A stretch of DNA of 64,000 nucleotides from a virus: the IMG/VR virus record IMGVR_UViG_3300045988_070370, positions 3,495-67,494 of that record; one strand, given 5' to 3'. A model generated the notes under the pieces. The model was not told the origin of the DNA. It worked only from the letters and a program-made list of their open reading frames with translations, and did no database searches. Below are positions 5,371 through 60,919 of the stretch, one piece after another; the first letter of the stretch is position 1, and each line of letters starts with the position of its first letter. Both the position numbers and the translations under genes were made by a program.

Positions 5371-6909
5371 TTAGGCAGCAGCCTTGGTCTCTCCCGTCTC
5401 AGCCATACCATCTGTTGCAGGAACCGCAGCAAGGCGCATACGAGCGTGTGCCTTAGGGTACTTCAAGTACAGACAAGCAACCTCCTGAATGACTACAGCA
5501 TCGGTGTTGCGAATACCAGCCTTCTTCAAATCGAGTACGTTACGAGTCCAAGACAAGTGTACTCGCTTAACCAAGAACTCTGGGTCAAGAGCAAAGCCAC
5601 AGTCGCTCATACCGAAGATGTCAAACAACTCAGAGTGAATCATCAGAACCTCACCAAAGTCGGTCTCCCAACTCTTGAACTTCAAGTTCCAAACCTCTAC
5701 GGTGTCCTTCAAGCGGAACTTGTCAGAATCAATCTTGCTGAATGCACTCACGAAGTCAGAACCAGCGATAATCACCTTGCGCTTGTTGCCGATACCAGTG
5801 CCAACAAACAAGTCCTTGGAAATGTCAACCAACTCCAAATCTGTGATAACTCGCTCATTCTTGTTGTAACCCTTCTTCATATCATCAGCAGTTGCAACAT
5901 GACCAACTTCAATATCCTTACCAGCCATCCACCAGATACCCTTGGTAAACCACTGAGCAGAGTTGTTCTTGGTAGTATGCTTAATACAAGCCATATCACC
6001 GAAGAGGTAAGTACCCTCCATGGCAAGGCGCATATCGTAAATACTATCCTCTTCTATGTCTGAGAAGTCCCAATCCACTCGCTTAGCCGCAATCTTGTTG
6101 AAGGTACTCTCCTCAATCTGAATCATAAAGTTCTGACAGAACTGAGTCTCAGAATCAGGAAGGTTGTTGAAACGACCAGTCTGAACATCCAACTCGCCGC
6201 AACTCTTCGCCATACGGATAAGCACCTGACCCTTCTTCAAGGCTGGAATGCCGATAGCCTGCTTGTTGACCAATTCACCATTTACTGCAAACACAATAGG
6301 ATAACCCTCATTATCCTTGCCGCAAACACAAAGTTCCAAATCAGGAGTAGGAGCATCTTTAATAGTTGAATAAGCAACACCCTTATAGTTGGTAATTGCC
6401 TTCACATTTACCACTCGGATAGTATCATCCAGTGTGAACATTTCAGGGTCTTCCACCTTCAACACCATAGATGTACCAGTACTCTTCACGGTGTCCTCCT
6501 TGACAGTTGTCTTGATAGGACGAGTGCCGATACTCCAGTATTCTACCACAAACGAACTTGCAGACTTGGTTGTCGCATAGCGTGAAATCTGGTCAACAGG
6601 AGTAGCCATCGGACGAATCTTGGTAATCTTGTCGTTGATGTCGTTCTCATAGAACTCCGTACCTTTCTCGTTATAAGCTTCACGACCCTTGGTTTCGGTA
6701 GCGATACCATCATCCTGACGAGCCGCACCACCATTGCCAGCTTCATCGGCAGCGGTAGCACCGCCAGCCTCAGCAGCATGACCACTCTCGGTAGTACCGC
6801 CATCAGGCAGAGCAGCCTCAGCCATGACCACATTACCATTCACTCCAAAAATAACTGCCATAACCATCAGAAAAATGGAAAGCAGCCGATTAAATGTACT
6901 TTTCTTCAT
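5371..6909 (-). CDS. Major capsid protein (HK97-fold type, probable) with signal-peptide-like N-terminus
   Basis: 512 aa, directly after the scaffold-like gene and followed by a strong terminator. The KITKIRPMATPVDQISRYA segment and overall beta-rich composition fit a capsid protein. The N-terminal 30 aa look like a Sec signal (MKKSTFNR-LLSIFLMVMAVIFGV-NGNVVMA/EA). An alternative start is M29 at 6825. Confidence 0.65.
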   Translation of the reverse strand: MKKSTFNRLLSIFLMVMAVIFGVNGNVVMAEAALPDGGTTESGHAAEAGGATAADEAGNGGAARQDDGIATETKGREAYNEKGTEFYENDINDKITKIRPMATPVDQISRYATTKSASSFVVEYWSIGTRPIKTTVKEDTVKSTGTSMVLKVEDPEMFTLDDTIRVVNVKAITNYKGVAYSTIKDAPTPDLELCVCGKDNEGYPIVFAVNGELVNKQAIGIPALKKGQVLIRMAKSCGELDVQTGRFNNLPDSETQFCQNFMIQIEESTFNKIAAKRVDWDFSDIEEDSIYDMRLAMEGTYLFGDMACIKHTTKNNSAQWFTKGIWWMAGKDIEVGHVATADDMKKGYNKNERVITDLELVDISKDLFVGTGIGNKRKVIIAGSDFVSAFSKIDSDKFRLKDTVEVWNLKFKSWETDFGEVLMIHSELFDIFGMSDCGFALDPEFLVKRVHLSWTRNVLDLKKAGIRNTDAVVIQEVACLYLKYPKAHARMRLAAVPATDGMAETGETKAAA

Positions 6910-6962: not shown

Positions 6963-7778
6963 TTATCGAATGTGTGTTCTCTTCTCGTTTCCACGTTCCC
7001 AAATGTTACCCCTACGTGAAGCCCTACCAAGCGCACCAAGGTCAGGCTGGTTATCCGTCTGCTTGGTCTCTGCATTGGCAGAATCAAGGTCAGCAGTACC
7101 ATCACCCTTCTTTCTCAGTTCAAGGTTCTTGACGTGCTTGCTGTTCTTGCCGCGGACTTCACCCTCATGGGCAGCATCAGCCACATCGGTATCATGATTC
7201 TTTGCCTTGATGAACGCAGTAATCATTTCCTCAGTAAACTTGCCAGTCACCACATTGCGCATAGTCTGAAAGCATTGGTCGATAGCATTGTTCACCGCTT
7301 CCTCGCCATACTTCTCTTCCAATTTGTCGAAGACTTCATAGCTGGAAGGCATGTTCTTGTCATACTCCTCCTGCAACTTCTTGCCGTTGGCAGCATTCTG
7401 CAAGAACTCCGACTGAGCCGATGCAATCTCATCCGCATTGTCAGGGTCTGAATAGTAGTCAATAGCATCCTCGCCATGCGTGCGAATCAACTCAGCGTAA
7501 GGACTCTTGCCAGCCTTCATCGCTTGAAGGAAGGTAGCCGCCTCAGGGTCACTACCCAGCCAATCGCCCATCGCCTTTTCGTTATCCTTGTAACCCTGCA
7601 AAGCCTTCTGGTCGGCATCATAATCATCATTGATTGCCCCATAGATAGACTCATCATCCGCATACTCCGTATCAGGATGGCGGGTCTTCAAACGCTCCAA
7701 AGCCAAGTCTCTCTTGGTCTTGGTGTCTTGCTGTTTTGCAGCACCAGCATTCTGCTCAATATTTGTATTATCGTCCAT
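6963..7778 (-). CDS. Scaffolding protein (probable)
   Basis: ORF 6963-7805. I prefer the start MDDNTNIEQ (7778), about 22 nt after the predicted TSS of the 7810-7817 box. The protein is acidic and helix-prone, lies immediately upstream of the MCP, and has a basic C-terminal tail RRGNIWERGNEKRTHIR. Confidence 0.55.
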   Translation of the reverse strand: MDDNTNIEQNAGAAKQQDTKTKRDLALERLKTRHPDTEYADDESIYGAINDDYDADQKALQGYKDNEKAMGDWLGSDPEAATFLQAMKAGKSPYAELIRTHGEDAIDYYSDPDNADEIASAQSEFLQNAANGKKLQEEYDKNMPSSYEVFDKLEEKYGEEAVNNAIDQCFQTMRNVVTGKFTEEMITAFIKAKNHDTDVADAAHEGEVRGKNSKHVKNLELRKKGDGTADLDSANAETKQTDNQPDLGALGRASRRGNIWERGNEKRTHIR

Positions 7779-7809
7779 ATATATATGTGTAAATTTATAA
7801 ATCAATGCC

Positions 7810-7817
7810 CAAAAGTA
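7810..7817 (-). promoter_or_regulatory. -7 promoter box (TActTTTG on minus strand) for the head operon
   Basis: The plus strand reads caaaagta. The divergent intergenic region 7779-7919 holds one box per strand. Confidence 0.5.
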
Positions 7818-7900
7818 ACACTTTTCAACTTATTATTAATCTTATCCGTTAACTATACTTAATCATATCCGATTAATTTGGTTATTTCAATACATTTTTG

Positions 7901-7908
7901 TATCTTTG
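7901..7908 (+). promoter_or_regulatory. -7 promoter box TAtcTTTG for the packaging/tail operon
   Basis: tatctttg lies 12 nt upstream of the ATG at 7920. Confidence 0.45.
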
Positions 7909-7919
7909 CATCATAGACG

Positions 7920-8375
7920 ATGAAACATAAAGGCTCACGATGTGACTTTACAAAAGAACGTGACGCTGACATATTGAGAGCTTACAAAAAGATTATATCA
8001 GTAAGAGACGATATAGGCATCTTGGAGATTGAGCGAAGACTATTGCAATCTCCAAGCAAACGTTTTTGGGTTTCCTCTGACCGAGCATACAATGTCATTC
8101 TCAATATGCTCAATGGTAAATCCATCAGCAGCATGAATCCACAGAAAAGAGCAATGTTTCAGGAGATTTTCCGAAGATACAAGATTTATTCCAAGGAGCA
8201 TCCTTCTCTCACCAAGATGGATGCCATTTGGCATGTGTGCAATCAGGAAGCACCGAGTTTCTATCTCACTCCAAAATCCATGCACGTCATACTTCATCGG
8301 GTGAGGAAGGAGGAGAAGAAAAGATGCTACGAACTTCGTCAGAGAAGATTGCGCTTTATGCAGGGTACATTATAA
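7920..8375 (+). CDS. Hypothetical protein (possible DNA-binding or small-terminase role, unsupported)
   Basis: 151 aa, basic, first gene of the operon containing TerL. No motif recognised. Confidence 0.45.
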   Translation: MKHKGSRCDFTKERDADILRAYKKIISVRDDIGILEIERRLLQSPSKRFWVSSDRAYNVILNMLNGKSISSMNPQKRAMFQEIFRRYKIYSKEHPSLTKMDAIWHVCNQEAPSFYLTPKSMHVILHRVRKEEKKRCYELRQRRLRFMQGTL

Positions 8376-8803
8376 TAATATGTATCACGCTCATAGGATA
8401 TGATGGCATGGGTCTCTATGAAGGTTGCTCTATTCAGAACCGACTAAGTTACCCTTTCTTCCATCAGAACATCTTTCATGCAGCCATCAACCTCTATGTG
8501 TTTCACCAATGTTACCGAGCAATCCCTTGCGGTATCGGTCACATGGTAGCATTCTATCTCATAGCCGTAAGCTATCCTTTTGCATCATCCGCACCAATCA
8601 TCGGTCTCAGCGGATTTATCTATGCTTACATGGGCTTTATTGCCCCATACGTTGAGAATAAGGTAAGATACAATCTCACCATTCTCCTATATATCTGTGT
8701 TGGAATCTTCTTCCCTTGCATGGCTGCTGGAGTCCACATCTATTGCTATGTACTTGGTCTGTTGTGGGGTTATTTAAATGCACCGCTATGCCAAGACAAG
8801 TAA
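8324..8803 (+). CDS. Rhomboid-family intramembrane serine protease
   Basis: ORF 8228-8803, with likely start MLRTSSEK at 8324. There are six hydrophobic helices in about 159 aa. The TM2 motif HQNIFHAAIN matches HxxxxHxxxN, the TM4 motif is GLSGFIYAYMG (GxSG), and TM6 carries GVHIYCYVLGLLWG (His plus GxxxG). Confidence 0.75.
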   Translation: MLRTSSEKIALYAGYIIIICITLIGYDGMGLYEGCSIQNRLSYPFFHQNIFHAAINLYVFHQCYRAIPCGIGHMVAFYLIAVSYPFASSAPIIGLSGFIYAYMGFIAPYVENKVRYNLTILLYICVGIFFPCMAAGVHIYCYVLGLLWGYLNAPLCQDK

Positions 8804-10929
8804 AACTGACAGATGCTGTAGACAAACATGTACTGGGCATCCTGAAAGAGAACGAGAAACGCATCAAGGAAATCAACACACCATTCAATCCTATCAAGGG
8901 TGAAGGTTGTGGAGATAAGCGATTCCTGCTCTTCCTTCCCGACTTCCCGATTCAGAGACAGCAGCTTCCAGTTTCGATGAAGAAGATTCCGCTCGTCAAG
9001 ATGCTCATCGAGTTGGGTAGCTGCAAGGCAGTAATCGAGGAACTGCACAAGGATATAGACGAGCCGTACAACCTAGAGGAAGAAATGGAGCAACTGGTGG
9101 AGCAGTTCACTCGCATCAGGATGAAACACGACCCCTTCTTCTTCTTTGCGACATTCATCTATATCAAACCGAAAAGTTGCGGTTTACCATTCTTATTCAA
9201 ACTCAGAAGACCGCAGCGAAGGCTGCTCAGATGGTTGGAGGAGCGAAGAAAAAAGAATCGCCCTATCCGTCTCATTCTTCTGAAAGCAAGACAATGGGGA
9301 GGTTCTACGGTTATCCAGATGTACTTCCTTTGGCTACAACTCATGTGGAAGAAAGGTCTTAACTCGCTTATTATCGCTCAGGTTAAGGACACAGCAGAAA
9401 CCATCCGAGGTATGTTCGATGAGGCTTTGAAGATGTTTCCTGTAAAGTTCCTGCACGAAATGGGGGAAGCTTATTCTGAAAACGAACAAAAGTTTGTTGG
9501 ATTCGGTACATCAGGTAACGTAAAGAAAGTACCTCAGAGATTCTGCAAAATTAAGGTAGGTTCAATGGAACGTCCTAAATCTCTAAATGGTGAAGATTAT
9601 ACGCTAATCCACTGCTCCGAGGTTGGTTTATGGGAAGCAACAGATGGAAAAACACCAGAAGATGTTGTTAACAATGCCACAAATGGTGTACTCTACCGAC
9701 CATATACTATGATTGTATATGAATCAACCGCAAACGGTACAGGAAATTTCTTTCATAAGGAATGGTTGGCAGCAGAATCAGGGGAATCACAATTTGAGCC
9801 GTTTTTTGTCCCATGGTTCGAGATTTACGACCTATACCATCTTGATTTTGAAAGCAAGAAACAGAAAGAAGAATTTGCTAGATGGTTATACGAGAATCGC
9901 AACAACACCAACACGATGTCCGACCGTGAAGAGCCATGTACATATCTTTGGAAGTTGTGGCAAATGGGTGCGCCTTTAGAGGCGATTAACTGGTACATTA
10001 TGGAGCGAAGGAAGTTTTCTGACCATGGTGACATGGCTAGTGGTTATCCATCAAATCCAGTAGAGGCCTTCAAACACTCAGGAGCCAAGGTATTTGCCGA
10101 AGACAAGGTTGACCAGTTCAAGAAAGGTTGCCGTGCACCTAAGTTCATCGGTGATGTTTATGGCGATGGTTATAAGGGTAAGAAGTGCCTACAGAATGTG
10201 CGATTCTCAGAAGACAAGACTGGTCAGTTGTGGATATGGAGCAAGCCTGAGTACTTTGATGATTGCAAGGTAACCAACCGCTATCTGGTTGTTGTGGATA
10301 TTGGTGGTAGAGGTAGTAAGGCAGACTGGTCTGTTATCTGTGTCTTCGACCGCTATTGGATGATGGAAGGCGGCAAACCATACGTGGTAGCCCAATGGTA
10401 CGGACACATAGATATGGACTTGCTGGCATGGAAGGCAGCACAGATAGCCAAGTACTACGACAATGCCCTGCTGGTGATTGAATCCAACACCTTGGAGACG
10501 AAAGACAAGGAGCACATCTTGGAAGGTGGTGACCAGTCTGAGTTCATCCTGAATCAAATCAAGGATGAGTACGATAATCTCTATGCTCGCAAGCAGAGCG
10601 AAGCAGACATCAAGGAAGGTCTTCCACGTAAGTACGGATTCCATACCAATGTGGCAACCAAGCCGATGGTTATCTCTGTACTGGTTCAGGTAGTCAGAGA
10701 ACATCTATACGTTGAGCGAGACCAGCGATGCCTGAACGAGTTCCTTACCTACGAGCGTAAGAAGAACGGAGCATACGGAGCCATCGACGGAAAGCACGAT
10801 GATTTGCTCATGACCAGAGCCATCGGACTCCACATCTGTTTCAATGAAATGGAAATGCCTAAGATGATAGAGAATAAGACAAGAGTAATGACAAGAAAGG
10901 TTTCTGTTTCGGCAGCAACCATCATATAG
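8788..10929 (+). CDS. terL: Terminase large subunit
   Basis: ORF 8716-10929, with likely start MPRQVKL at 8788. It has the ATPase P-loop-like LLKARQWGGST, a Walker-B-like LIHCSEVGLW, and a C-terminal RNase-H-like nuclease segment VVVDIGGRGSKADWSVICVFDR. Confidence 0.85.
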   Translation: MPRQVKLTDAVDKHVLGILKENEKRIKEINTPFNPIKGEGCGDKRFLLFLPDFPIQRQQLPVSMKKIPLVKMLIELGSCKAVIEELHKDIDEPYNLEEEMEQLVEQFTRIRMKHDPFFFFATFIYIKPKSCGLPFLFKLRRPQRRLLRWLEERRKKNRPIRLILLKARQWGGSTVIQMYFLWLQLMWKKGLNSLIIAQVKDTAETIRGMFDEALKMFPVKFLHEMGEAYSENEQKFVGFGTSGNVKKVPQRFCKIKVGSMERPKSLNGEDYTLIHCSEVGLWEATDGKTPEDVVNNATNGVLYRPYTMIVYESTANGTGNFFHKEWLAAESGESQFEPFFVPWFEIYDLYHLDFESKKQKEEFARWLYENRNNTNTMSDREEPCTYLWKLWQMGAPLEAINWYIMERRKFSDHGDMASGYPSNPVEAFKHSGAKVFAEDKVDQFKKGCRAPKFIGDVYGDGYKGKKCLQNVRFSEDKTGQLWIWSKPEYFDDCKVTNRYLVVVDIGGRGSKADWSVICVFDRYWMMEGGKPYVVAQWYGHIDMDLLAWKAAQIAKYYDNALLVIESNTLETKDKEHILEGGDQSEFILNQIKDEYDNLYARKQSEADIKEGLPRKYGFHTNVATKPMVISVLVQVVREHLYVERDQRCLNEFLTYERKKNGAYGAIDGKHDDLLMTRAIGLHICFNEMEMPKMIENKTRVMTRKVSVSAATII

Positions 10930-10951
10930 TTCAAACTAAATAATTACGATT

Positions 10952-11257
10952 ATGAAAGTAACAAAGATTTTCAAGCGCATCAAGTGCGAAATCATGTACC
11001 GCCAAGCTACGGCTAAGGCAGACTACGCATCCAAGAAGAACAATGGAGAAATCTTCTATGTTCTTCCTACACAGAAGGGCAACCTGATGATTATGAACCG
11101 CTCACTATTCGAGACGTTCAAGAGAACAAAACTGGTTGACAACGACATGAAGGTTAGAGACCTGTTCAGGGATTGTGTCTATCATACCAACTGCAAGAGC
11201 AAGAAGGGTAAGGCGAGCCGCAAGCGCAAATTCCTAAGATGGAAAGGACTTATTTAA
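10952..11257 (+). CDS. Small basic hypothetical protein
   Basis: 101 aa with a K/R-rich C-terminus, between TerL and the tail fibre. Confidence 0.5.
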   Translation: MKVTKIFKRIKCEIMYRQATAKADYASKKNNGEIFYVLPTQKGNLMIMNRSLFETFKRTKLVDNDMKVRDLFRDCVYHTNCKSKKGKASRKRKFLRWKGLI

Positions 11258-11302
11258 CAGTACTTCATTAACTGATAAGGTTATACAATTAGAATAAAAA
11301 TA

Positions 11303-11310
11303 TAACTTTG
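11303..11310 (+). promoter_or_regulatory. -7 promoter box TAacTTTG upstream of the tail fibre gene
   Basis: taactttg lies 15 nt upstream of the ATG at 11325. Confidence 0.45.
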
Positions 11311-11324
11311 CAGAAAAAAAGGAC

Positions 11325-13400
11325 ATGGCAGAAACTATCAATACACAGACTACTGGATATGAATGCGTTGGCATTGAAAAGATAGAGCAGACTTACGAAG
11401 GTCTGTTCGACAACAAGCCAAACATCATAACCATATATCTTACAAACGGAGACACTCATCAGTTTAAGGTGATGAATGGCTCACAAGGAGTAGGTATAGA
11501 CAGGATTGAGCAAAGGCAAACGTCCACCGTTAGTGGTGGAAGAAACGAGTTTGCCATTATTCTCACGAATGGAAAGGAATATACGTTCTCTACATACAAC
11601 GGAAGCGGTGGCTCTGGGTCAAGTGGTAGTTTCAACCAAGTCCTACAGCAGCTGAACAACTTGTTGATGCCATCAGGAAAAAGCTACCTGTATTATAACG
11701 GAAGTGGCTTTGAGTGGAAATCTCCAGATGGTTCTACAGGTGGTGGCACGGCAGACCTCTCTGAGTACAGTTGGTGGGGAAGAAAGTTTGACCCTGCGTC
11801 TAAGTCGATTACAGGCGAAATGTCTAGTGTCACCTGTATAGAGTTTCAATCAACCAATGGCGAAACAGTCATCAGAAAGAAACTCCATCTTGACAAGAAC
11901 GGTGACTTGTGCTTTGACGGAAACTTATATGCCACTGGTGGAATAACAGCTTTAGGAGTAGGAACTACAACTGGTGGTGGTAGCTCATCTTCATCCCGCT
12001 ATCCGTTCACCATCTACAATGGTTCATCGGATAATGACTATATTACTTATGATGGTAGTTCTTCTGCATATTTAAGGTTCAAAAGCGGTTTTTCTATATC
12101 AAAAACAGGCTTGGGTTATGAGATTTCAGTTTCTGGTGGTGGAAGTGGTGGTTCTATACAAGTTGCACAAACACCAGAATATGCTGGAGAAAGTGAGAAT
12201 TGGGTTAGTACAACTAAATTACGTTTTGTAGGTATTACTGGTACAAAACCAACTATTAGAACAAATTCTGAAAAAAGTTGTGTAGATGTTGGTATTCCTG
12301 TTGGTGGTGGAAGTGGCTCTAGTGGTACTACTGCTGGTAAGTTACGTTTCTACCAAGATAGTTCAGAAGAAACGTGGAATGGTGAATCTGACTTCAAGAT
12401 AATCTTTGGCAGTGGAATCAACGTAACTTGGGATAGTCATTCACAGATTACTTTATCTGCTTTAGGCGGAAGTGGTGGTTCTACGTCAACAAGTGTATCT
12501 TGGTCAGACGTAACAAACAAGCCGAGCACGTTTACACCTAGCAGTCATACTCATTCAACAAGTGACATCAATGGTCTCTCTAATTACGTGCGGGGCATCA
12601 CAGTTAATAATGCTGACAAAGCAACGCAGTTGGCAAACCCACGACTCATTTGGGGACAGAGCTTCAATGGAACTGGTGACATCAACGGCAACTTGAAAAT
12701 GGGTTCGGCAGGAGGTGGTTCTATTCAGCTTTGGATGAACAATGGCAATATGCTCGATCGTACAAACAATATACTCCATATTGGTTATGGACTGAAAGAA
12801 TCGTCTTATGCAGAGATAAATTTGGATGCCTATGCAACGAAGGTTTATACCGACAACATGAGCAAGCACTATGATTTCAAGAGCAATGTCTTCGATGTTA
12901 ATTCAAACCAAATACACTTTGGTTCTGAAACTAATGGTGGTAAAATCTCTTGGGATGCAGCTAATAAAGCTTTCAAAATAGAAGGAAATATTTATGCTAC
13001 TGGAGGTATAACTGCACTTGGTGTAAGTAATAATGCTACTACAAGCAATAATGTTGACTTTACTTTTAAAAGTGTTACTGCAAATACTTTTAATGTTATA
13101 GATAGTATTCAACTATCTGATAGTCTTATCTTAAACAGGATTGACAGTAATGTTTACTTAGCTAGTACAGATGTTACTCAGGCTAGTTATATATATCTTG
13201 ATGGTAATGACCAAAATTATTATTTAAGTTCACAAGGAGACGCTTATTTTAATAGTTTAAATTGTGATATTTTTAATTTTTCTGGAGTTACAAATTTTGA
13301 AATTGTTGATGCAAATGATACAGGTTTTAACATTCAATTTAATTATAATGGTAAAACATATAAATTTTTTCCATCTGATAACAGTGTTACTGTAAGTTAA
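11325..13400 (+). CDS. Tail fibre protein
   Basis: 691 aa. Two N-terminal roughly 40-aa repeats are present (GIEKIEQ...ITIYLTNGDTHQFKVMNGSQG and GIDRIEQ...AIILTNGKEYTFSTYNGSGG). Several GGGS/GGSGGS linkers occur, and the motif YATGGITALGV appears twice. Confidence 0.75.
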   Translation: MAETINTQTTGYECVGIEKIEQTYEGLFDNKPNIITIYLTNGDTHQFKVMNGSQGVGIDRIEQRQTSTVSGGRNEFAIILTNGKEYTFSTYNGSGGSGSSGSFNQVLQQLNNLLMPSGKSYLYYNGSGFEWKSPDGSTGGGTADLSEYSWWGRKFDPASKSITGEMSSVTCIEFQSTNGETVIRKKLHLDKNGDLCFDGNLYATGGITALGVGTTTGGGSSSSSRYPFTIYNGSSDNDYITYDGSSSAYLRFKSGFSISKTGLGYEISVSGGGSGGSIQVAQTPEYAGESENWVSTTKLRFVGITGTKPTIRTNSEKSCVDVGIPVGGGSGSSGTTAGKLRFYQDSSEETWNGESDFKIIFGSGINVTWDSHSQITLSALGGSGGSTSTSVSWSDVTNKPSTFTPSSHTHSTSDINGLSNYVRGITVNNADKATQLANPRLIWGQSFNGTGDINGNLKMGSAGGGSIQLWMNNGNMLDRTNNILHIGYGLKESSYAEINLDAYATKVYTDNMSKHYDFKSNVFDVNSNQIHFGSETNGGKISWDAANKAFKIEGNIYATGGITALGVSNNATTSNNVDFTFKSVTANTFNVIDSIQLSDSLILNRIDSNVYLASTDVTQASYIYLDGNDQNYYLSSQGDAYFNSLNCDIFNFSGVTNFEIVDANDTGFNIQFNYNGKTYKFFPSDNSVTVS

Positions 13401-18014: not shown

Positions 18015-18953
18015 TTAACCCCAGAATCCTGCATTGTTAGCAGCATTCAAACCATACTGATAAGCCACGCAGTTAGGAACCGCAGTAAATGGACTGTAAG
18101 GAGTAGTCACGGTCTCAGGCAACTTACACTTGATACCAGCCACCTCGTTCTGCAATCCAGCCAATACCGCATTGATAGGAGCCACCGCCTGACCAACAAT
18201 CTGAGAGGTCATAGCAGAAGACTTGAAGGTGCTGTTCTCCTCACGGAGTGCATCAATCTTGTTCTGCATTTCCCTGAACTCAGCTTGCTTCTGACCATCA
18301 ACGATAGTCTGAGTACTTTCCTTGATAGCATTGTGCAAGTCGCAAGTCTGTCGCTGAGTCTCGTAAGCCACGTTAGAGAAGCCACGTTCCTGACCAGTAG
18401 CTACGTTGTTGATTGCATTCTGCAAGGTTCCAGTCTGCTGGCAGATAGCCAAGCGGTTCTCGCAGCAGCAGTTTGCAATCTGCTGAGCAATCTGCATATT
18501 ACCCTGCTGCAAGGCATTGATGGTCTGCATACCACTCATGCCTACCTGATTACCTACACTCTGAACCTGAGAGGTCAGGGCAGAAATTGCATTCTGAATC
18601 TGACCTTCTGTACAGTTCAACTGGGTAGCCAAGTTGCTGAGAGCATTGCGGTTGCCACCGATGGCATCCATCAGGAGACCACGACCATAGTCATTGTTAA
18701 TCTCGTTTGCGAGACCACCACGACCATTATTACCGAAACCTCCCCAGCCGTTTCCACCCCAGCCCATGAGGAAGAAAAGGAAGATTACCCACATAAACCA
18801 TCCACCTTCACCACCGAAACCATTGTTACCCTTCATGGCAAGGAGGACATTTGGGTCAACACCCTGCTTCTGGAGCAGAGGCGCAAGAAGACCAAGCATC
18901 CCATTGTTAGATGTGGAGCCTTCATTTCCGAATACATACGTTTTACTTTCCAT
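18015..18953 (-). CDS. Gly-rich membrane-inserting / Q-N-rich Cys-containing repeat protein
   Basis: 312 aa. A Trp/Phe-rich helix WFMWVIFLFFLMGW sits inside GGxG tracts. It is followed by three Cys-containing QNAI-type repeats. Confidence 0.5.
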   Translation of the reverse strand: MESKTYVFGNEGSTSNNGMLGLLAPLLQKQGVDPNVLLAMKGNNGFGGEGGWFMWVIFLFFLMGWGGNGWGGFGNNGRGGLANEINNDYGRGLLMDAIGGNRNALSNLATQLNCTEGQIQNAISALTSQVQSVGNQVGMSGMQTINALQQGNMQIAQQIANCCCENRLAICQQTGTLQNAINNVATGQERGFSNVAYETQRQTCDLHNAIKESTQTIVDGQKQAEFREMQNKIDALREENSTFKSSAMTSQIVGQAVAPINAVLAGLQNEVAGIKCKLPETVTTPYSPFTAVPNCVAYQYGLNAANNAGFWG

Positions 18954-19160: not shown

Positions 19161-19538
19161 CTAAATATTTATGCTATACTTCTTTGCTTGCTTACGGAAG
19201 AAAGCCTTCTTATTAGCAAAGAATCGGATAAGGGATTTATTCCACTTTTTCTCATGTCCGAACTGGTCATGGATGCCTTCTGGTATCTTGCCATCGTGAA
19301 CATACTTCTCGAATGACGAGATAGACTTACCCATTTCGTGGGCGCACCAACCCTTATTGGCTTGCGTATCATTCATCATGGCGGTAAGGAGTGCTACCAG
19401 TTCCAAGTCCCCTTCTGACAGACCACAAGGTATTGGTTTGCCTTCTTCTTGCGCTACTGCTGATTCATGCGCTTTATCAGCAAGAACACGAAGTCCTGCC
19501 TCTATGATTCTGTAATTTACTAATTGCGACATAAGCAT
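19161..19538 (-). CDS. Hypothetical protein
   Basis: 125 aa. Its 5' end overlaps the upstream ORF. Confidence 0.4.
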   Translation of the reverse strand: MLMSQLVNYRIIEAGLRVLADKAHESAVAQEEGKPIPCGLSEGDLELVALLTAMMNDTQANKGWCAHEMGKSISSFEKYVHDGKIPEGIHDQFGHEKKWNKSLIRFFANKKAFFRKQAKKYSINI

Positions 19539-19956
19539 ATAAAATTAGAATGAGTGTAATCAGGAACATATCACAATAATACATATCGTTTGTGACAACA
19601 ATAGAACCGAACATGATGTGTATCACATTGACTCCTGCAATATACAAGATAGGTATTCGCCATTCTACACACAATCTGTGTAACACCTGCCCTTTCCAAA
19701 GGGAAATAGGGTAAAGGATATAAGTGATGAAATAGAAGAACCAGACGGGTTCTTCGTTCTCTTCATACCAAAGGGTAATCTCCATATTGTTGTCATAGAA
19801 TTGAGATATACCATACCATCTGATAAGCATGACCAAGATTGGTGCATACTTAAAGTAAAGTAAATCTGTTTTTATTTTACTGCGTTCAGGGAGAAGTTTA
19901 GTTATCTCTCCTATCAATTTCCTGACCCGTTGGTCTTCATCATCATCTTGTTTCAT
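19477..19956 (-). CDS. Hypothetical multi-pass membrane protein
   Basis: 159 aa with at least three hydrophobic helices. Confidence 0.45.
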   Translation of the reverse strand: MKQDDDEDQRVRKLIGEITKLLPERSKIKTDLLYFKYAPILVMLIRWYGISQFYDNNMEITLWYEENEEPVWFFYFITYILYPISLWKGQVLHRLCVEWRIPILYIAGVNVIHIMFGSIVVTNDMYYCDMFLITLILILYAYVAISKLQNHRGRTSCSC

Positions 19957-20198: not shown

Positions 20199-23100
20199 TT
20201 ATTTTTTCTTAGCATTCGCTTTCTGGTTAGCCACAACTACCTTGTTAGCCTTCTCCAGCACGGAAATAATCTTCTTTCTCAGTTCACGAATCTGTTTCAT
20301 GTCCTCAGCGTTGTAGGCATCCTTGCCATCATCCAGAAAACCTTTCTTCAACTCGGAAATCTCCTGCTTATCAAGGGAAATCTCATCAATGGCATCAATG
20401 GCAGCCTTGTTGGTGTTGTAGTAGCCATCACTCTGACTAGGAGCCGTATCAACCAAGAGGTCATAGGAAGTCTTGAATCCGTTCAGTTTGGTGTAGAGTT
20501 GTTTCAGCTTCAAGTCCTCGAAATCATCCTTTGGGGTAGCATGAGCCTTGTATATATCCTCGGCATTCAACTTGTGAGGTCTATACTCCTCCCCACTCTC
20601 CTCAGCACGTTCCTTCTTCTTGTCTTCCTCATACTTCTTCACCTTCACATCATCCTGCTTATACTGCTTATACTCCTCTGAGCCGTAGAACCGCTCCAGC
20701 ATAGAGTAATCTCCATCCACCTTAGCTTGTTTCTTCAACTTGCTCAGGGTATTGGCTGCACGGTCGTGGTTCTCCTTCATATCCCAGAACTCATCACCTT
20801 GTTTCTTTGTAACCGGTCTATCATCAGGATTGCTGACGAACTTGCTGAATAATGGAATATCAGCCACCTTGATTTCCTTCGGGTCGTTGAGTGACTTGGT
20901 AAGAACACCGAGCACCTGACTGCCCATGGTGTAAGCACCACCGAGATAAGAAGACAATACATGGTCAACCACAGCAGGGTTATTCAGATTGTATCTTGGG
21001 TCACCGAAAGCATCTATGCTATTCTGCTGCACATCAGGATAGTCGTTTCCGATTGAGTTAACCATCTTGGACGCACGAACCAACCAATCAGGAGTGCCCA
21101 CGTATGCCTTGGTAAAGTTAGGATCATACTTGTTGTACTCTGTGTCCTTGAATAATGGCTTGCCAGTGAAGTCAACATTGAAAGCCAACTCAAAGACTGG
21201 ACGAATAGCATTCGGCATCAGACTGACCGCAATATTGCCATCATATCCAGTAGGGTCGAGCGGAAGCATATCCACCACCTGACCGAGCAAGTCTTCACCA
21301 TACTGACTCCAACTCTCCTCAGCCAACTCGCCACCCATCATCTTGGATGCAATCATATCACCCAAGCCATAGAAAGCACGGAACTCCTGAGCAAGAGGAA
21401 TCTTCACAAACTCATGAGTAAACGGAACCCACATAATCAGGTTGTTTCGTCTATCCCACTTGGTGAACTGCCAGTACTTATCCTTATCATCATCACCACC
21501 CAACATACTCATCAAGGCAGCATTAACGATAGGAACCAGTACACCACTCGCCAACCATGATGCAGTAACAGCCGTAAACTTGAAAGGATGATGCTTGACA
21601 AGCGCACCCAAGGTCTGCAAACTCTGTACCGCTGGATTGATGAAGAGATAGAGGTTTCTAATCATCTGCCAGCCATATTCGCCAGTACCCTTGCGGTTGA
21701 AGTTCAGGGTCACGTCCTTGGCATCATTCACCGCCTCATCAATGGAACGTCCATACTGAATAGAGGTCATGTAAACCGCAAATCGGTTACTATCCTCGAT
21801 TGCTCTATTCAGGAACTCGATACCATCCATGATGGTGTGCCCTACCTTTACTGGGTTCGCCTTCCATCTATCCAAATCCTTCAAGTCGTTCTTGAATTTC
21901 TTCTTCAAGTCTTCCACGTCAAGCGAAGAGACAAAGCCAGTCTCGCCACCATTCATCATAAAGTCATAGAACATCTGTTCCTTTGGAGTAGCGTTTCCGT
22001 TGTTTACCTTCTCTCTCAACTTGCCGTTCTGATAGTCTCTCAGCATGAAACCGAGATTCCAAGAGGTAGCCAGATTCTTTCTTAGCATATAGTTGTATCT
22101 TCCATCCTCACGAATAGCGGTAGATGCAAGGGTCATGGTCAGGTCTCGGAAGTAGTTGGAAGGGATGAAGAGAGGTGAAAGACTGGTATAGGCAGCAGCC
22201 ATCTTTCTGCCCAACCAAGCAGCAGCCCTATCAAGTTTGCCGCTCTGAATCTCTCTTACTCGGTGTGCTCTAGTATTGTTCATCGCCTGAGCCAACTGAG
22301 GGTCACCATTCACATAGATAACGTACTCCTCGCCATCCTTCATCACTCTTACCTCATGTTCTCTCTCCTCGCTGTGAGTCTGAGGATAGGCTATGTTCAA
22401 TCCGTCTCTCTTCTGAGTAGCATCGCCAGTCTGAGCCATCTGCTCCATCTTCTTCTCGAAAGCATCAATGGCAGTCTTCACCTGATTACTATTCATCTGA
22501 GAAGTAATCTGAGGTGTAGCAGGAATCCACTCTTCGTTTCCGTTGGCATCCGTACTCTTCACGTACCAAGCCTTGCTCAGGGTCAGCAGGGAAGTTGGAT
22601 GATTCTGAGCCAAGAGCATCAGGTGTTGCTTCACCCAGTTCTTGTTGTTCAGCAGGATTCCACTCTCTGCCATATTCTCGATGTAGGCGATAGGGTCGTC
22701 AGCGATAGAGGTTCGTCCGTGTGCCGTTTTCAAGGTTTGATTGAACGCACCCTTGCCACCACCAATATAGTCCCATACTTGGTCGGCAGTAGTGCCATCC
22801 CAGCCACGGAGAGGAATATAATGGCTATACATATCTCGCACATACTGATAAGTATCTTTGCTCATCATGCCAGCCTTATAGCCATCACGGAGAATCTTCT
22901 TGGTAGCCGCATTCGTTGCGTCCCAGAGGTTGTGAGTCTCGGTTATATACTTACTCTCAATATCCTTTATCAGTTTGTGGGCAGCTTCCTCGAAGTCTGA
23001 GCCATCAAATAGAGCAGACAAGCCTGAGTAATCGTAGGCGATACCCATCTTATCATAACGATAGTTCATATAGGATGGAGAGTATTTCACTCTGAGTGCA

Positions 23101-26100
23101 TTATCTCTCTGTCTCCAAGTAGTGAAGTCTATGTAGCCAAGTTCAAAGCCGCTATCATTGCCCATTCGGTTCATGTCGCCCTTGTAAGCCCTGTATGCCG
23201 CACTTCTCTGAGCCACGTCCTCATAGTCAGCTTCCAGAGACTTCTTGAAAGCCATCTGAGCATCACGCTCCAAACCATGCTTAGCCATCATGTAGATACG
23301 GACATTGTCATAACTATCACCCAGCACCTTCTTCATCTGATGATAAGCCTTTCTCAATGGCTGCAAGAACTCATTGTTGTACTCCTCGAACTCGTTCTTA
23401 CCCTTGCCATGACTTCTGTTCTCGGCAGTATAGGCATCCTCAGCCATGTTCAGGCGGTCAACACCCACTTCCTTCATAATAGCTTCCTGAGCCTTGCGGA
23501 TAGCCAGCATACTATCTTGGAAGGCGATTCTTTTGAGCACAGAACCACGCTGCAACTCTCGGTTGAACTCTCCAAGGGCAGTATCATCACTCAGAAGATG
23601 CTGTTCGTAGGTTGGAGCAGTCTTCCACAGAGCCATCTGTTTGCGGTAGTCGTCCACTCTCCTCAGGAAGTCAACGGCACTCTCGCCAGCGTTGCGTTGT
23701 GGGATGGATGGTCGCTTGGCATCCTTAGGCAGATTATTATCCTTCTTCCACTGGTTCAGGTCGTGCTCAAACTGGTCATAGCGCAAGGAGAATCGGGTAT
23801 TACCAACGATATTGGCATTGTTCTCATCGAATATCACGTAGTTGTAATCGCCTTCCTTAGCACCGCCAAATATATTACCAGCCTTATACTTGATACCAGT
23901 GAAACCAATAGAAGACAGGAACTTACTAACTGCACGACTAGCATCTACATCTTTCCACTTTTTTGTTCTTCTTAAAGCATACATTAGAAAATCATAGGCA
24001 TTACCGCCAAATGAACCATCAAAAGAAAAACCACGCTTTTTAAAGTCGTCAAAATCTATTTTTAATCGCCTTAATTCTTTAATGATTGTATTCTTCTGTT
24101 TATCTGTCAAAGGAGCATCCCAATCAAGATAATCTCCATTATCATCAGGAATATCCACATCATAAAGATAAGCAATATTATCAGGAACAGCTATTTCCTC
24201 ATTCTTCTTTGCAAGAATATTGCTAAGTTCCTTTAAATCATCATCATCAGGGAACATTTCTAGAGCAGAAGGAAGGTCTTTTCTCATAGCATCCAATCCC
24301 TTGTTTACATCTTTATATTTATAGATATATTGTCTTACCATATCTTTGTTATTGGCAGACATATCTGTCACAAATTCAAAACCGCCATTATCTTTCCTTA
24401 TCTTGGCACGTCTTGTGTAGTCCTCAGCAATATCCTTAGAGTTAGTAACATAACCACCCCAGCCAAACGCTTGTGAACCTTCGCCTTCACCCATGTGGCT
24501 GAAATCGAACTTATCAAAGCTAGCCCCAGTACCATGATAGGTGCGGATGCTAAACTTAGGGTCAGAACCAGTAAGCAGTGGAGCAATCACATGCTCGGTC
24601 AACTGGGTAGGGATTCCGTTGCCGATGATGGTATGGCTCAGATTTTCAGAGAATGGCATCTTGTAATCATCGCTCACTCCTGATACTCTTGCGAGCACTC
24701 TGCCCATAGCACGATACACCTTGCCATCAGGCATAACAATCACATCACCACTCTTGGTTCGGAGCGTTGGCAGGAGTTCGTCAGCAAAGGCATGAGGAAT
24801 CTTGCCATCAGCATAAGCACTACCCATCACATACAATGGCTTGTCAATGTTTCTCCAGTCAATGCCATCAGCCTTCAAGCGAACGTCCATCCAAGGAGCC
24901 ACACCATTCTTCTTCTCGGTCAGTGTCGGGATAATATCAGCCACAGCTTCATACCATCCGCTCTTGTGTGCCATCTTCTTTGGCTTGTCAGGAAGTTTGC
25001 CATCACGAACCGCACGGACAATCAATCTCTCTCGGTTGGTGTAGCCGCCATAGTCAGCAGCATTATAGACATCAGCATCCCAAGTATAGCCATTGGCATC
25101 CAGCGCATCCGTGATAGTCTTCATCGCTTCTGAATCCTTATATCCCTTCACGTTTTCAATGGTCACAACCTTTGGCTTGATAGCATTGATGAACTCGGCA
25201 GTACTTGCAGCAGTCTCCTTGTCAAGTTCCAACTCAGCATGGTTACTCTTCGCCTGAGAGTAGTTCTTGCAGACTGGGCTGGCATGGAAGTACTCTACCT
25301 CGCCATCTATCTGTTTCACCAACTCCTTAGGGTCAACATCACGAACATCAGCAGTAACGATGTGCTGTCCGAAGTTGTTGCGATATACACCGCTTATCTT
25401 CTCATCATACTCCACTGCCACTACTGGGTCGATGATACCCTTCAAGCCTTCCTCAACAAGACCGCCACCGCTAAAGTATGTTCCAGCCTTAATGAGAGTG
25501 CCATCCTTCAGGGAGAACTTAGGCTCCTCGCCAGCAATCTCTGCCTTGCGGTTCTCGCCCAGAGCCTGAGCAATATGAATCATCTTCCTGTTAGCCATCT
25601 GCCAGCCGCTCGGCATATCATCAATGGCAGTCTTGATAGCATCATCCACCTCATCAGGAGTGTTCAGACTCTTCAAGTCCTCAGCCATATCAGCCGCCCC
25701 ACTCTCCTTTCCGTCAGCCATATCACGGAGAGAGAAGGACACATCGCCAACGCCCAAGAAAATCTGGTCTTTGCGAGCCACGTCCTCAGTAGATTCAGCG
25801 AGAGTTTTTCTTCTCTCCTCAGGAGTCATGTTAATTCGGGCAGACACATTACGAGCTTCCACCTCTCCAGCGAGTGACTTGTAACTGTTGTAATCATCAT
25901 TCGCCTGATAAGCATTATAAAGACCTCTGTTCTTCTCAACAATAGCCTTAGCCTCATCTTCCTTGCCTTCTGCACGCAACTGGCGAATCTGCTTAGTAAC
26001 CTCTGCTAATCTCTTCTTAATCTCACCTCTAACCAATCTAGGGCTACCTCCTCTATCAAAGCCCTCAATAGACTGGATTGCATGCTGAATCTCGTGATTC

Positions 26101-29100
26101 AATATACTATTCATATATTTCAGCTCGTCAGCATGGATGGTAATGGTGTTTGTCTTGGCATTATATTCACCATTTGAAGGCATATCGTTCATAATGGCAT
26201 CCGTTTCAATACGTACATCTTTCAACTGAGGATAAGCCTTAAATAATTCAGGTGCATCAATCACCTTAGATAGTTTGCCGCCATTCCAGAGCATATCCTC
26301 CTCATAACGCTTAACGATTTGTCCACCGCCTACGTCCATCGTGTCCTTTATCTTGGCATCAGGCATTTCGTATCTCCACTTGCCATCGGCACCACGCTCC
26401 CAGCCAGTAGCCATCTTGATAGCCTTGGCATCCTTCTTCTCCTCTTCCATCTTGCGAGCCACTGAAAGGAAATCCATACGAGCAGTACGCTCCTCTGCCT
26501 TGTCAGCAGCAGCCGCACCACGCTCACCAGCGAGAGAGAAACGAATATCATTGTTGTCGGCAGAGAAATCGCCATTGTTATTCTCGGCAGACTTGATTTG
26601 GTTGGCATTAAATGCTACATAAGAAGTCCCACCAAACTCCTCATCATCTATAACAACACCATCATATCCATCCCTTATCTGCTCTTCTCTAAAATTATTT
26701 CCCGCCTCAATTATTGGAGCAACATTTTCATAATCTTCCTCGTAAGAATTGAAATCTTCATCGCTTATATAATTATTCAGATAATCAGCAAGACCTTCCA
26801 AAGTGTAGCCATCGAATGGTTCTACTATATTTAGGAAACACGCCATAGGTTTACCCATATATTCAGGTTGTTTTTTATTTGATGTAAACCAATGACCGAT
26901 AGTTGTTGTTGCAGCATAACTCGCATTAGTGGCATTGCCAAATGTATTTTTGCCAACTTCTTTATCTTTCCCAAATATAGTAAAGCTCTCATCCGTATAA
27001 TGGTACATCACCATAGGCTCGCCATTCTCATCCACCACCTTGGAAGCATTCTCAGGGTCATTCTCCCAATCACCGAACCAGTTCTTGAAGTTGGCAGTAC
27101 GGACGGTTGCCCATTGTTCTGCATCCAGTTTGGTCTTCTCACCATTAGGAGCCGTCATATAGGTTCCGTTTGACTTGGCATCAGCCACAATCTTCTCCTT
27201 CTCTGCTTTCAGAGAGAATCGTATATTGTCACTACTATTGATAGCTTCATTGAAGGCACGACTGCGGTCACCTTCCTTATTCGGGTCGTAGTCATACATT
27301 GGTAAGCCAGCATCCTCAATGCCCTTGCGTACATCTTCGCCCAAGTTGTCAGGAACCACGGCAGCAGCAAACTCGTTTAGACGGAGAGGTCTGTTGTATT
27401 TAGTCTCAAAGTACGCACTCTTCAACTCAGTCTGTACTGCATTCTTCAAGGCATCCAGTTTCTTCATGAAGGTAGGAGTAAGGGTAATGCCATATTCTTT
27501 CTTGGCATACTTCTTAGGGTCAGACTGCAATACAATATCGTGAAGTCTCTGCTCACCATAGAACACATCATTATACAAGAACTTGGCAAGGTCATAATAA
27601 ACCTCACTCCATTTCTCGTAAAAAGCTTCCTTATCCTCATTAGAAGATAACTTATCCTTGTTGGCACGCATTTCGTCTGTAGAATCAACACGACTAGCCA
27701 ACTTTGCGATAAAGCTACCAAACGAGGTATATTCGCTTCCATTGGTCTGCCCATCTGCTTCTTCCCTCATAGCCTTTGAAACATTTTCAAGAGTCTCAGG
27801 CACATACTTTCGGGAACCATCCTTAGTATAGCCACGGAAGATACGGTTCTTCGTTCCGAACTCATCCAGTTTGTTCTCCTGCCATCTGATGTAATCATCA
27901 TAAAGACCATTCTTGTTGACGTAATTACTAGCCTTCACCTTAGACAGATAGAAGTCATACTTCTTGGTATCGTTATGCTCCTTCACAATATCCTCAACAA
28001 CCTTCTTCACATCTTTTTTTCTTGGACTTCCGTCCTTGTTAAGCAAGGTTGATTTATAGTCACGCTCAAAGATTTCCTTAGTCTGTTTTCTTACTTGTGG
28101 ATTGATAGGGCTAGCCTTAACGCCAGTCTCCTTATACATCTTTCTTCTTACCTCCAAAGAAACCTTTTCCCAAGTAGGATGGATGATGGCATGCTTAGCC
28201 AGACTTGTAACCTTTTCATTCAGTTCAGGGTCATTCTGCATACTGCTCAGAATATCCTCGGCAGTAGGATGGTCATTGATAATCTCTTTCCAGCGATAAT
28301 CAATTCTTGAATCATACGCTTTAATATCAATGCCCTTTTCTTTAAGATACATCAACTCCCAAGCAGGAACACCATTGTCTTCCATTACATCCTTGGTCTG
28401 TCTCTTAATCTCTGCCTTAGCAGCACTAGGGTATTCAAGGCTGTCAACCCAGTCTTCAAACTTCTGACTGCCCTTTTCGCTCATTTGCCGCTCTACGGAA
28501 GGATAACGCTGAGTATAGGCATCAGTTATCCAAGTACCAGCAGTCTTGCCAGTGCGCTTATCTACAAGGGCAGAAGGAGCAATAAAAGAAATCTCTCCAA
28601 AGTTGTCGTGACCACTCTTGTTGGTATCAATCACAGCCAAAGAAGGATTGGCAAAGCCACCCAGTTTCAAAGCCTTTCTCAGCTTCTCCTCTGTAATGTT
28701 ATGCACTCCTGCAAGAGTTTTTTCATCCTTCAATGAAAACTTTTCTCCATTTTCCTTGGCAGTTTCAGAAGAATTGTCTATCTTTGCAGCAGATAAGTCA
28801 TCCGTAAGGTTGGAAAGACCACCAACCTCTTCTGATTGTTCAGAAGGCAGTATGAGGACTTGGTCGCCCTCACGGATGGCTTGTTTCTTTATCAATCCCA
28901 AATTTTTATCATTCACAAAGTGCCAATGAACGATTTCCACATTGTCTTTATTAGGATTTACCTCTAATAATACTGTGCGGTTATTGCCCTTCTCGTCCTT
29001 CGTGTTGATAAGCACCCAATTATATGGTCTAGTTTTCTTTTGATTCTGACCATACAAATCAGGATTGTACAAAGCAGACTTAAAGATTACTTTACTCAAT

Positions 29101-38413: not shown

Positions 38414-39073
38414 CTATGCATTAATCTTCTTTGGCGCATTATCGCCAACCATATCATTCAATTCACTCGCTACCTGCTGCTGGGAAGGAGCCGCACCAAC
38501 CTTGGCATCCAACTTAGCCATGTCTGAATCAGTAGGCGATGTCACGTCAGGACGCTTAGGAGTCTTGCTACTACCACCACTATCAAGCGTAGCAGCGATG
38601 TTGGCAGCAGTACCAGCCACACCAGCTGCAACGTTAGCAGTATCAGCAGACTTCTCGGCTTCCATCTGCATCTGTTGCCCCTGAATAGAACGCTTATTCT
38701 GCTGATACTGCTGCTCGATAGCATCCTTACGAGATTCGTTTGCAGCTACAATCTGAGAGGTCGTATCAGCAAGAGTCTTGTTGTTCGCCTCCTTCACCGC
38801 AGTAGTAGAATCTTCCGTACCGCCCATTACGGCTTGTCTGCCCTTAGCTGCTCTGTTTCTGTTCTTAATCTGCTCCTGCATCTGAGTGAGCAACCTGACT
38901 GTATCGGCACGTTTGGTAGGGTCTTCGTTATACTTTCTATCATACCATGCCTGATTATCTCTCTGCTGCTGGGCAAGCATCTGCTCCTGCTTTTTTCTCG
39001 CCTTGCGGTTAGCTATACCGCCAGCGATACTGCTTGCAAGCCCAAGCCCAGCACCTATTAATGTACCAATCAT
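38414..39073 (-). CDS. Internal virion / pilot-like protein with N-terminal glycine-zipper helix
   Basis: 219 aa. MIGTLIGAGLGLASSIAGGIANRK is followed by a Q-rich coiled coil. It is the first gene after the 39105-39112 promoter box. Confidence 0.5.
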   Translation of the reverse strand: MIGTLIGAGLGLASSIAGGIANRKARKKQEQMLAQQQRDNQAWYDRKYNEDPTKRADTVRLLTQMQEQIKNRNRAAKGRQAVMGGTEDSTTAVKEANNKTLADTTSQIVAANESRKDAIEQQYQQNKRSIQGQQMQMEAEKSADTANVAAGVAGTAANIAATLDSGGSSKTPKRPDVTSPTDSDMAKLDAKVGAAPSQQQVASELNDMVGDNAPKKINA

Positions 39074-60916: not shown

Positions 60917-60919
60917 TAT

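Follow-up and report, generated by a model that had tools for sequence, protein, structure and literature searches.

A predicted minimal rhomboid protease encoded in the terminase operon of temperate Bacteroidales podophages, with the capsid leader as candidate substrate

The DNA analyzed here, 64,000 nucleotides from the IMG/VR virus record IMGVR_UViG_3300045988_070370 (positions 3,495 to 67,494; the whole stretch is called the window, and coordinates are counted from its first letter), derives from a temperate podophage of Prevotella/Bacteroides from the gut. The gene at 8324-8803 of the window very probably encodes an active, minimal rhomboid protease in the packaging operon, because family profile and fold match rhomboids, the catalytic residues are invariant, and the ratio of nonsynonymous to synonymous substitution rates (dN/dS) is 0.06-0.15 in the part of the gene that does not overlap its neighbours. 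The capsid protein of the same phage starts with a signal-peptide-like leader that is a candidate substrate of this enzyme, and the joint statement, that the packaging-operon rhomboid is active and cleaves the capsid leader, is given a probability of roughly 0.45. The features that identify the rhomboid are the following.

8324-8803, + strand: rhomboid gene, predicted product a 159-residue minimal rhomboid-family intramembrane serine protease with six transmembrane (TM) helices and no additional domains.
8462-8491, + strand: TM2 motif H47-x4-H52-x3-N56 (HQNIFHAAIN, residues 47-56), aligned with the same motif of GlpG.
8603-8614, + strand: TM4 motif G94-L-S96-G97, aligned with GLSG of H. influenzae and E. 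coli GlpG.
8735-8776, + strand: TM6, with the predicted catalytic H138 (nucleotides 8735-8737), Y142, G145 and the small residue G149, aligned with the catalytic His helix of GlpG.

The open reading frame (ORF) has 159 codons on the + strand, and runs from the ATG at 8324, which corresponds to the start in all homologues (N-terminus MLR..), to the TAA at 8801-8803. The predicted catalytic S96 (nucleotides 8609-8611) lies within GLSGFIYAYMG (residues 94-104), and the TM6 string GVHIYCYVLGLLWG covers residues 136-149. In E. coli GlpG, the counterparts of the three TM2 motif residues are H145, H150 and N154. A first reading of the DNA made from the letters alone (the sequence-only reading) had described a six-helix protein carrying three rhomboid signatures in the right helices. 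The strings it quoted are all present, and both hydropathy and an AlphaFold2 (AF2) model find six membrane helices plus a short helix in the L1 loop, with the motifs in helices 2, 4 and 6. Helices in the model span residues 2-24, 50-66, 71-83, 96-109, 113-129 and 135-152, the L1 helix residues 37-45.

Family profiles were needed to place the protein, because searches with the single sequence gave marginal matches only, both in the PDB (H. influenzae GlpG, E=0.05) and in Pfam, where the window protein scores 12.7 bits (E=0.15) against the Rhomboid family PF01694, under the gathering cut-off of 22.6 bits. The profile match for which the sequence-only reading had called is obtained with the homologues, 30 of 30 sampled matching PF01694 (best E=1.6e-5), and stays under the cut-off for the window protein taken alone. 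The family profile retrieves from the PDB the H. influenzae GlpG structure 2nr9 (E=3.3e-7) and E. coli GlpG (about 1e-3), with the three motifs in register. Precomputed PF01694 matches are on record for more distant members, some of which bear the name 'Rhomboid family' or 'GlpG-like protein' at NCBI or JGI. The best AF2 model, built on 30 homologues, has a predicted local distance difference test score (pLDDT) of 84 and a predicted TM-score of 0.81; the top 28 Foldseek matches of this model in the PDB are all GlpG or iRhom structures (probability 1.0, TM-score about 0.64), and the best fold matches in BFVD are 'GlpG-like' proteins of uncultured podophages. Two of these results speak against the assignment: the Pfam score of the window protein, and the fact that only one of five AF2 models is confident, the other four having a pLDDT of about 50. 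No family was matched by the rhomboid protein in PHROGs.

Homologues are numerous: 68 close ones and 372 at profile level were collected, 209 IMG/VR stretches encode a relative, and a single cluster at 90% identity has 3,702 member sequences. Conservation was measured on 112 full-length relatives, non-redundant at 90%. H47, H52, N56, G94, S96, H138, Y142 and G145 are invariant in all 112, so that the conservation of the catalytic Ser and His on which the sequence-only reading had staked its case is complete. Among the packing positions of TM6, C141 is near-invariant and position 149 is G, A or S. R40, in an L1 loop of about 15 residues, is found in 110 of the 112 members and aligns with the Arg of the WR pair of GlpG; a residue other than Trp precedes it. 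The positive-inside rule would place both termini of the protein in the cytoplasm, as in GlpG, and therefore the active site would open to the periplasmic leaflet.

Assignments to other protease groups were also considered. The commonest weak NCBIfam match is to rhombosortase (TIGR03902), seen in 23 of 30 members with a best E of 6.6e-5. The rhombosortase reading was rejected: the window protein scores 10.3 bits against an equivalog cut-off of 84 bits, and a hydropathy scan of the window ORFs found no GlyGly-CTERM-like protein, i.e. one with an N-terminal signal and a C-terminal TM anchor. C-terminal TM segments occur by hydropathy only in the ORFs at 43560-43964, 44007-44432 and 19477-19956, none of which has an N-terminal signal; no GG motif was found in the two tail anchors examined. 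Known prohead proteases belong to families S78/U35 and U9 and to herpesvirus assemblin-like folds. No homology of the rhomboid to prohead protease families was found, Pfam returning Rhomboid only and PHROGs nothing.

The rhomboid gene sits between two other genes of a short operon, which diverges from the head operon. The neighbouring features are as follows.

7920-8375, + strand: small upstream ORF, first gene of the operon, 151-residue basic soluble conserved protein (phrog_27246, E=1.5e-35, function unknown).
8788-10929, + strand: terminase large subunit, TerL (phrog_2, E=2.6e-19).
7806-7919, no strand: divergent intergenic region between the head operon (- strand) and the operon of small ORF, rhomboid and TerL (+ strand), from the gene map.
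6963-7778, - strand: scaffolding-type acidic protein, first gene of the head operon (phrog_22323; its position 5' of the capsid gene is conserved).
5371-6909, - strand: major capsid protein, 512 residues, HK97 fold of the SU10 type (PF17236 SU10_MCP, E=3.5e-28; phrog_26635).

The rhomboid gene overlaps the upstream ORF by 52 nucleotides and TerL by 16, the ATG of TerL being at 8788 and not at 8785. A terminator scan of the + strand from 7920 to 10929 found no terminator-like site. Small ORF, rhomboid and TerL are probably co-transcribed and translationally coupled, and the rhomboid would thus be made late, with the head proteins. Late promoters are presumably located in the 7806-7919 interval; a scan for sigma-70-type promoters and for terminators gave nothing above shuffled expectation, with a model that does not cover Bacteroidota promoters. 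A profile search of the small upstream ORF against the PDB returned nothing meaningful; from its position alone, the product may be the small terminase or a DNA-binding subunit.

The same layout, scaffold and capsid on one strand, small ORF of about 145 residues, rhomboid and TerL on the other, is found in every rhomboid-carrying phage, and was seen in three isolates, metagenomic contigs, prophages and more than 200 IMG/VR loci. The order is kept even at 24-30% identity of the rhomboid and 35-40% of TerL. The rhomboid is a core gene of the packaging module and not a moron, because gene order is fixed in every carrying phage; on this point the survey of related phages upholds the sequence-only reading, which had argued from the overlaps with both neighbours. 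Prophages of Prevotella and Segatella are closest to the phage of the window, one of them residing in the complete chromosome of Segatella copri HDE04; more distant are the isolated temperate Bacteroides phages BS-TP4, BKO1-TP3 and BF1-TP2. BF1-TP2 gp59, BS-TP4 gp8 and proteins recorded as 'MAG TPA: Rhomboid family / GlpG-like protein [Caudoviricetes]' are members of this family, with 29-37% identity. Annotation of these relatives is uneven: in three of three GenBank records (L001-L003; PQ571277, PQ571263, PQ571269) the large terminase is mislabelled 'tail spike protein', the BKO1-TP3 rhomboid is mislabelled 'glycoside hydrolase', and the capsid protein of the isolated relatives is labelled 'DUF2951' or 'DUF5309'. 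Scans of IMG/VR with the BF1-TP2 or BS-TP4 rhomboid alone returned almost only near-identical contigs, and a megablast of the rhomboid region against phage genomes gave no match.

TerL proteins from 266 loci fall into 71 clusters, of which 34 have the rhomboid, always between the small ORF and TerL, and 37 lack it. The distance from TerL start to capsid start is about 1.86 kb in rhomboid-carrying and about 1.29 kb in rhomboid-less loci, the latter being about 0.5 kb shorter; in L244, the rhomboid-less locus examined in detail, the small ORF, which in carrying phages lies directly 5' of the rhomboid, abuts TerL. No rhomboid was found elsewhere within 10 kb on either side of 53 rhomboid-less loci; the ORFs with at least four TM segments around these loci are six, none rhomboid-like. 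In a rough neighbour-joining tree of TerL, rhomboid-carrying lineages fall on both sides of the midpoint root, which suggests an old rhomboid gene, probably ancestral, that one large clade has lost. MW202692, the nearest outgroup for TerL in the phage collection, is uninformative, being too distant and of another gene order. Carriers are a large clade of temperate Bacteroidales podophages, in which the rhomboid is vertically inherited; their hosts, where assignable, are Bacteroidales (Prevotella, Segatella, Bacteroides), and the clade features an SU10-type capsid protein, a P22-type portal and a giant polyvalent protein of 5-6 thousand residues.

Among the proteins that the sequence-only reading had listed as possible substrates, the N-terminus of the capsid protein is the best candidate.

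6820-6909, - strand: capsid leader, residues 1-30 (MKKSTFNRLLSIFLMVMAVIFGVNGNVVMA), with a basic n-region, a hydrophobic region of 15 residues, a G/N turn and the invariant M29-A30.

Past the leader comes a stretch of about 50 residues enriched in Gly, Ala, Thr, Asp and Glu, and the SU10_MCP domain begins at residue 82. The leader is an add-on N-terminal to this domain, present in every capsid protein of the clade. Across capsid proteins that share as little as 17-20% overall identity, it is one of the best conserved parts, with five of 34 invariant columns (L14, A18, G22, M29, A30) in the first 30 residues; dN/dS values of 0.14-0.41 denote purifying selection on the leader. The type of leader tracks the rhomboid. 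A short, single hydrophobic segment followed by G-x-S-G-V-M-M-A is found in 33 of 34 rhomboid-carrying and 3 of 37 rhomboid-less clusters, a long or two-segment leader, possibly a hairpin, in 1 of 34 and 34 of 37, respectively. An LPDAG-like motif past the junction occurs in 27 of 34 rhomboid-carrying clusters, and in none of the 37 rhomboid-less ones. Capsid protein and rhomboid are the sole TM-bearing ORFs in 16 of the 34 rhomboid-carrying representatives (6-10 kb on either side), and the head-module proteins that were scanned include none recognisable as a prohead protease. With a small residue (Ala) at P1 and a hydrophobic one at P4, the junction fits the recognition motif of rhomboids reportedly defined by Strisovsky and colleagues in 2009.

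According to the mechanism proposed, the rhomboid would clip the single-segment leader of the phage's own capsid protein at or beside the invariant junction G-x-S-G-V-M-M-A/x-A-S-x-LPDAG (the slash marks the cut). The cut would free the capsid domain from the membrane for assembly, the rhomboid filling the role that the prohead protease or the host leader peptidase have in other systems. Taken by itself, the assignment of the leader as rhomboid substrate is tentative, with the odds somewhat against it. It is doubtful that the capsid protein is a membrane-tethered precursor, and the rhomboid, co-expressed with the terminase, the protease that releases it. Were this so, it would be the first intramembrane protease in the morphogenesis of tailed phages, and the first evidence of a capsid supply gated at the membrane. 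Tethering of capsid proteins to the membrane could then be general and unrecognised, host enzymes serving where the phage has no rhomboid of its own; this wider scope is considered because hydrophobic leaders are present in 97 of 118 full-length SU10-type (PF17236) capsid representatives at 50% identity, far beyond the rhomboid-carrying clade. We know of no described role for signal-peptide-like leaders in tailed-phage capsid proteins.

Several observations tell against cleavage of the leader by the rhomboid. Leaders are common on capsid proteins with no rhomboid nearby, which qualifies the match between leader and enzyme: no linked rhomboid is found in the large environmental clade L244-L296 (L289 and L295 excepted), in L169, and in the Muribaculaceae islands L299 and L300, and therefore a phage rhomboid is not generally required for such leaders. 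The association of leader type and rhomboid is confounded by phylogeny, as only about three contrasts are independent. The leader resembles an N-in Sec signal peptide, and the junction would fit signal peptidase I (A-x-A) as well. The capsid domain has to finish in the cytoplasm, a destination that a cut on the periplasmic side, where the active site of the rhomboid is expected, does not readily account for. Finally, the Met-Ala at the junction is compatible with a cleavage site, or with a conserved internal start codon giving rise to two isoforms.

Met-Ala at codon 29 (6823-6825, - strand) is invariant in all aligned capsid proteins from rhomboid-carrying phages. A similar hydrophobic-x-Met-Ala motif is seen in 18 of 37 rhomboid-less clusters, and leaderless homologues begin at about this place. 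Leaderless SU10-type capsids are found in chromosomal mini-islands of Muribaculaceae that have no TerL, not in full phages, and hence offer no clean test of whether absence of the leader goes with absence of the rhomboid. In the four loci of this kind (L297-L300) the capsid gene, at 10001-11281, 648-1892, 10001-11422 and 10001-11377, respectively, comes with or without a leader. The islands are made up of a small ORF, the capsid gene, an ORF of about 170 residues and a short P22-type portal of about 470 residues, flanked by housekeeping genes and devoid of TerL; in L300 the capsid gene is nearly alone. These islands could be capsid-forming satellites or domesticated capsids.

Alternatively, the rhomboid may target membrane proteins of the host, by inactivating a membrane-anchored defence or abortive-infection effector, by remodelling secretion in the way AarA does on TatA, or by blocking superinfection, the capsid leader being handled by host enzymes or bypassed through internal initiation. 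We regard this as unlikely. It would account for the leaders that lack a nearby phage rhomboid, for which host processing, or none, must suffice, and for the fit of the capsid junction to signal peptidase I; rhomboids of other phages are found in other contexts and annotated as morons, and assignable hosts all being Bacteroidales, a host-specific need is possible. However, genes for counter-defence or exclusion tend to be accessory and variable, and to sit in early or lysogeny modules. The fixation of this gene in the packaging operon, its overlap with both neighbours and its retention at identities as low as 24% are more in keeping with a morphogenetic role.

An active rhomboid may otherwise cut another membrane protein of the phage, either the two-TM holin (963-1226), thereby acting on lysis timing, or the helix of the gp14-like protein (38414-39073); we consider this rather improbable. 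Small residues abound in the TM helices of both proteins. Past the gp14-like helix comes the basic cluster NRKARKK, which predicts an N-out/C-in orientation, that of the canonical bacterial rhomboid substrate TatA, and the same late head operon ends with the holin and endolysin genes. Yet T7 gp14 itself has a hydrophobic N-terminus, and the gp14-like helix would accordingly not be specific to rhomboid-carrying phages; removal of a few N-terminal residues, moreover, would not release gp14. The lysis cassette seems complete and conventional, with a soluble GH19 endolysin and a class-II-like holin, and proximity to the rhomboid is constant for the capsid gene, but not for the holin or the gp14-like gene. 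No result of the analysis ties the holin, the gp14-like helix or host membrane proteins to the rhomboid. A further candidate of the sequence-only reading, the Gly-flanked helix of the 18015-18953 product, has to be dropped, as no TM segment is found there by hydropathy.

A non-proteolytic function of the fold, as a derlin-like membrane thinner or dislocase, or as a chaperone of hydrophobic virion proteins, is very improbable. Rhomboid pseudoproteases such as iRhoms and derlins exist and are among the fold matches, and the phage protein is unusually small, with a truncated L1 loop. Pseudoproteases characteristically lose catalytic residues, and the pseudoprotease reading was rejected because H47, H52, N56, G94, S96 and H138 do not vary in the 112 members. 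The chance that the gene is a spurious ORF, or its motifs a coincidence, is negligible: the sub-threshold Pfam score of the window protein would suit it, but the close and profile-level homologues, the 209 IMG/VR stretches, a dN/dS of about 0.1, and profile and fold matches to rhomboids only refute it.

Other genes of the window were noted along the way. One encodes a P22-type portal, the label PF16510 (P22_portal) being that of its relatives. The head operon ends with a conventional lysis cassette, made up of a GH19-type endolysin (415-963, - strand) and an 87-residue, two-TM holin candidate (963-1226, - strand). An 81-residue protein with an N-terminal TM segment and a 97-residue lipoprotein (DUF4884), encoded one after the other at 60671-61213 (+ strand), could be a spanin pair. 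The 38414-39073 gene (- strand) encodes a T7 gp14-like internal virion or ejection protein with a glycine-zipper N-terminal helix, and adjoins the gene of an RNase H-domain protein (40067-40771, - strand; PF00075, E=5e-25). A single ORF of 5,684 residues spans 20199-37253 (- strand); its homologues in relatives, 5.9-6.0 thousand residues long, carry ddrB-ParB, InPase, helicase, MuF_C and LPD38 domains, and the one in BKO1-TP3 is annotated 'DarB-like antirestriction'. The product looks like a polyvalent, probably injected, protein.

The window also encodes a tyrosine integrase of the Bacteroidota type. Next to it, the gene at 44432-45613 (- strand) specifies 393 residues that start with what looks like a lipoprotein signal (..LISLC..) and comprise an aspartyl protease domain of the retropepsin type (PF13975, E=2e-15), besides matching TPR weakly; as cargo of a lysogeny module, a secreted protease of this kind is unusual. 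Between integrase and aspartyl protease genes reside two convergent genes (43560-43964, + strand; 44007-44432, - strand) encoding apparently paralogous tail-anchored proteins, which share a 'YVLLD' N-terminal region, have one C-terminal TM helix each, and match no family.

Rhomboids occur across cellular life, and few bacterial ones have a known natural substrate. Fold and chemistry of the GlpG type are already known, as are homologues in isolated Bacteroides phages and in uncultured-phage records labelled 'rhomboid' or 'GlpG-like'; any claim of novelty has to be softened, because homologous phage genes are already auto-annotated as rhomboids. What appears to be new is a distinct, minimal subfamily of about 160 residues whose L1 loop is truncated, the fixed place of its gene in the terminase operon across a broad clade of gut phages, and the correlation of capsid-leader architecture with the rhomboid. 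A literature search found no functional study giving a phage rhomboid a role, in line with the sequence-only reading, which knew of none in morphogenesis or lysis, and no study noting the capsid leader; mentions are at the level of annotation pipelines, as for the DLP5 moron. The report describing BS-TP4, BKO1-TP3 and BF1-TP2 does not mention the rhomboid (PMC12694917).

Carrier phages are common in the human gut, BS-TP4 being reported in 31% of 930 viromes (PMC12694917). Rhomboid and capsid leader make up a compact, genetically linked candidate enzyme-substrate pair, made tractable by the isolates and lysogens at hand (BS-TP4, BKO1-TP3, BF1-TP2, Segatella copri HDE04). Were the link true, a new class of protease would enter phage morphogenesis, and the signal-peptide-like leaders of a large family of HK97-fold capsids, surprising for tailed phages, would be explained. 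If it fails, there is still a conserved membrane protease, probably expressed late, in prevalent gut phages.

Among known systems, GlpG of E. coli and H. influenzae (PF01694, MEROPS S54) is the best match of the phage rhomboid in both sequence and fold. The two share the six-TM core, H-x4-H-x3-N in TM2, G-x-S-G in TM4, the His and small-residue packing of TM6, the L1 Arg, and the predicted N-in/C-in topology. Unlike GlpG, to which it is about 18-22% identical, the phage protein lacks the N-terminal cytoplasmic domain and the Trp of the WR pair, has an L1 loop of only some 15 residues, is at 159 residues near the minimum for the fold, scores under the Pfam cut-off when taken alone, and is encoded by a phage, inside the terminase operon. 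The auto-annotated phage rhomboids are of the same family, the genes of the isolates BF1-TP2 and BS-TP4 being at the same gene position, with labels that come from annotation pipelines. In Stenotrophomonas phage DLP5 the rhomboid has been listed as a moron, which sets its context apart from that of the terminase-operon gene. Rhombosortase is likewise a compact rhomboid paired with a cognate sorting signal; the signal proposed here is N-terminal.

Conceptually, the mechanism proposed would be closest to that of AarA of Providencia stuartii, a rhomboid that activates TatA by removing a short N-terminal extension beside its TM helix. In both cases a dedicated rhomboid would trim the N-terminal membrane segment of one protein. 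Unlike TatA, which stays in the membrane and is N-out, the capsid protein must leave the membrane, and its leader looks N-in. The prohead proteases HK97 gp4 and T4 gp21 would be analogous in role, since they take an N-terminal propeptide off an HK97-fold capsid protein and are encoded beside head and packaging genes. They have an unrelated fold, are soluble, and act inside the assembled prohead, whereas the phage rhomboid would act in the membrane, before assembly.

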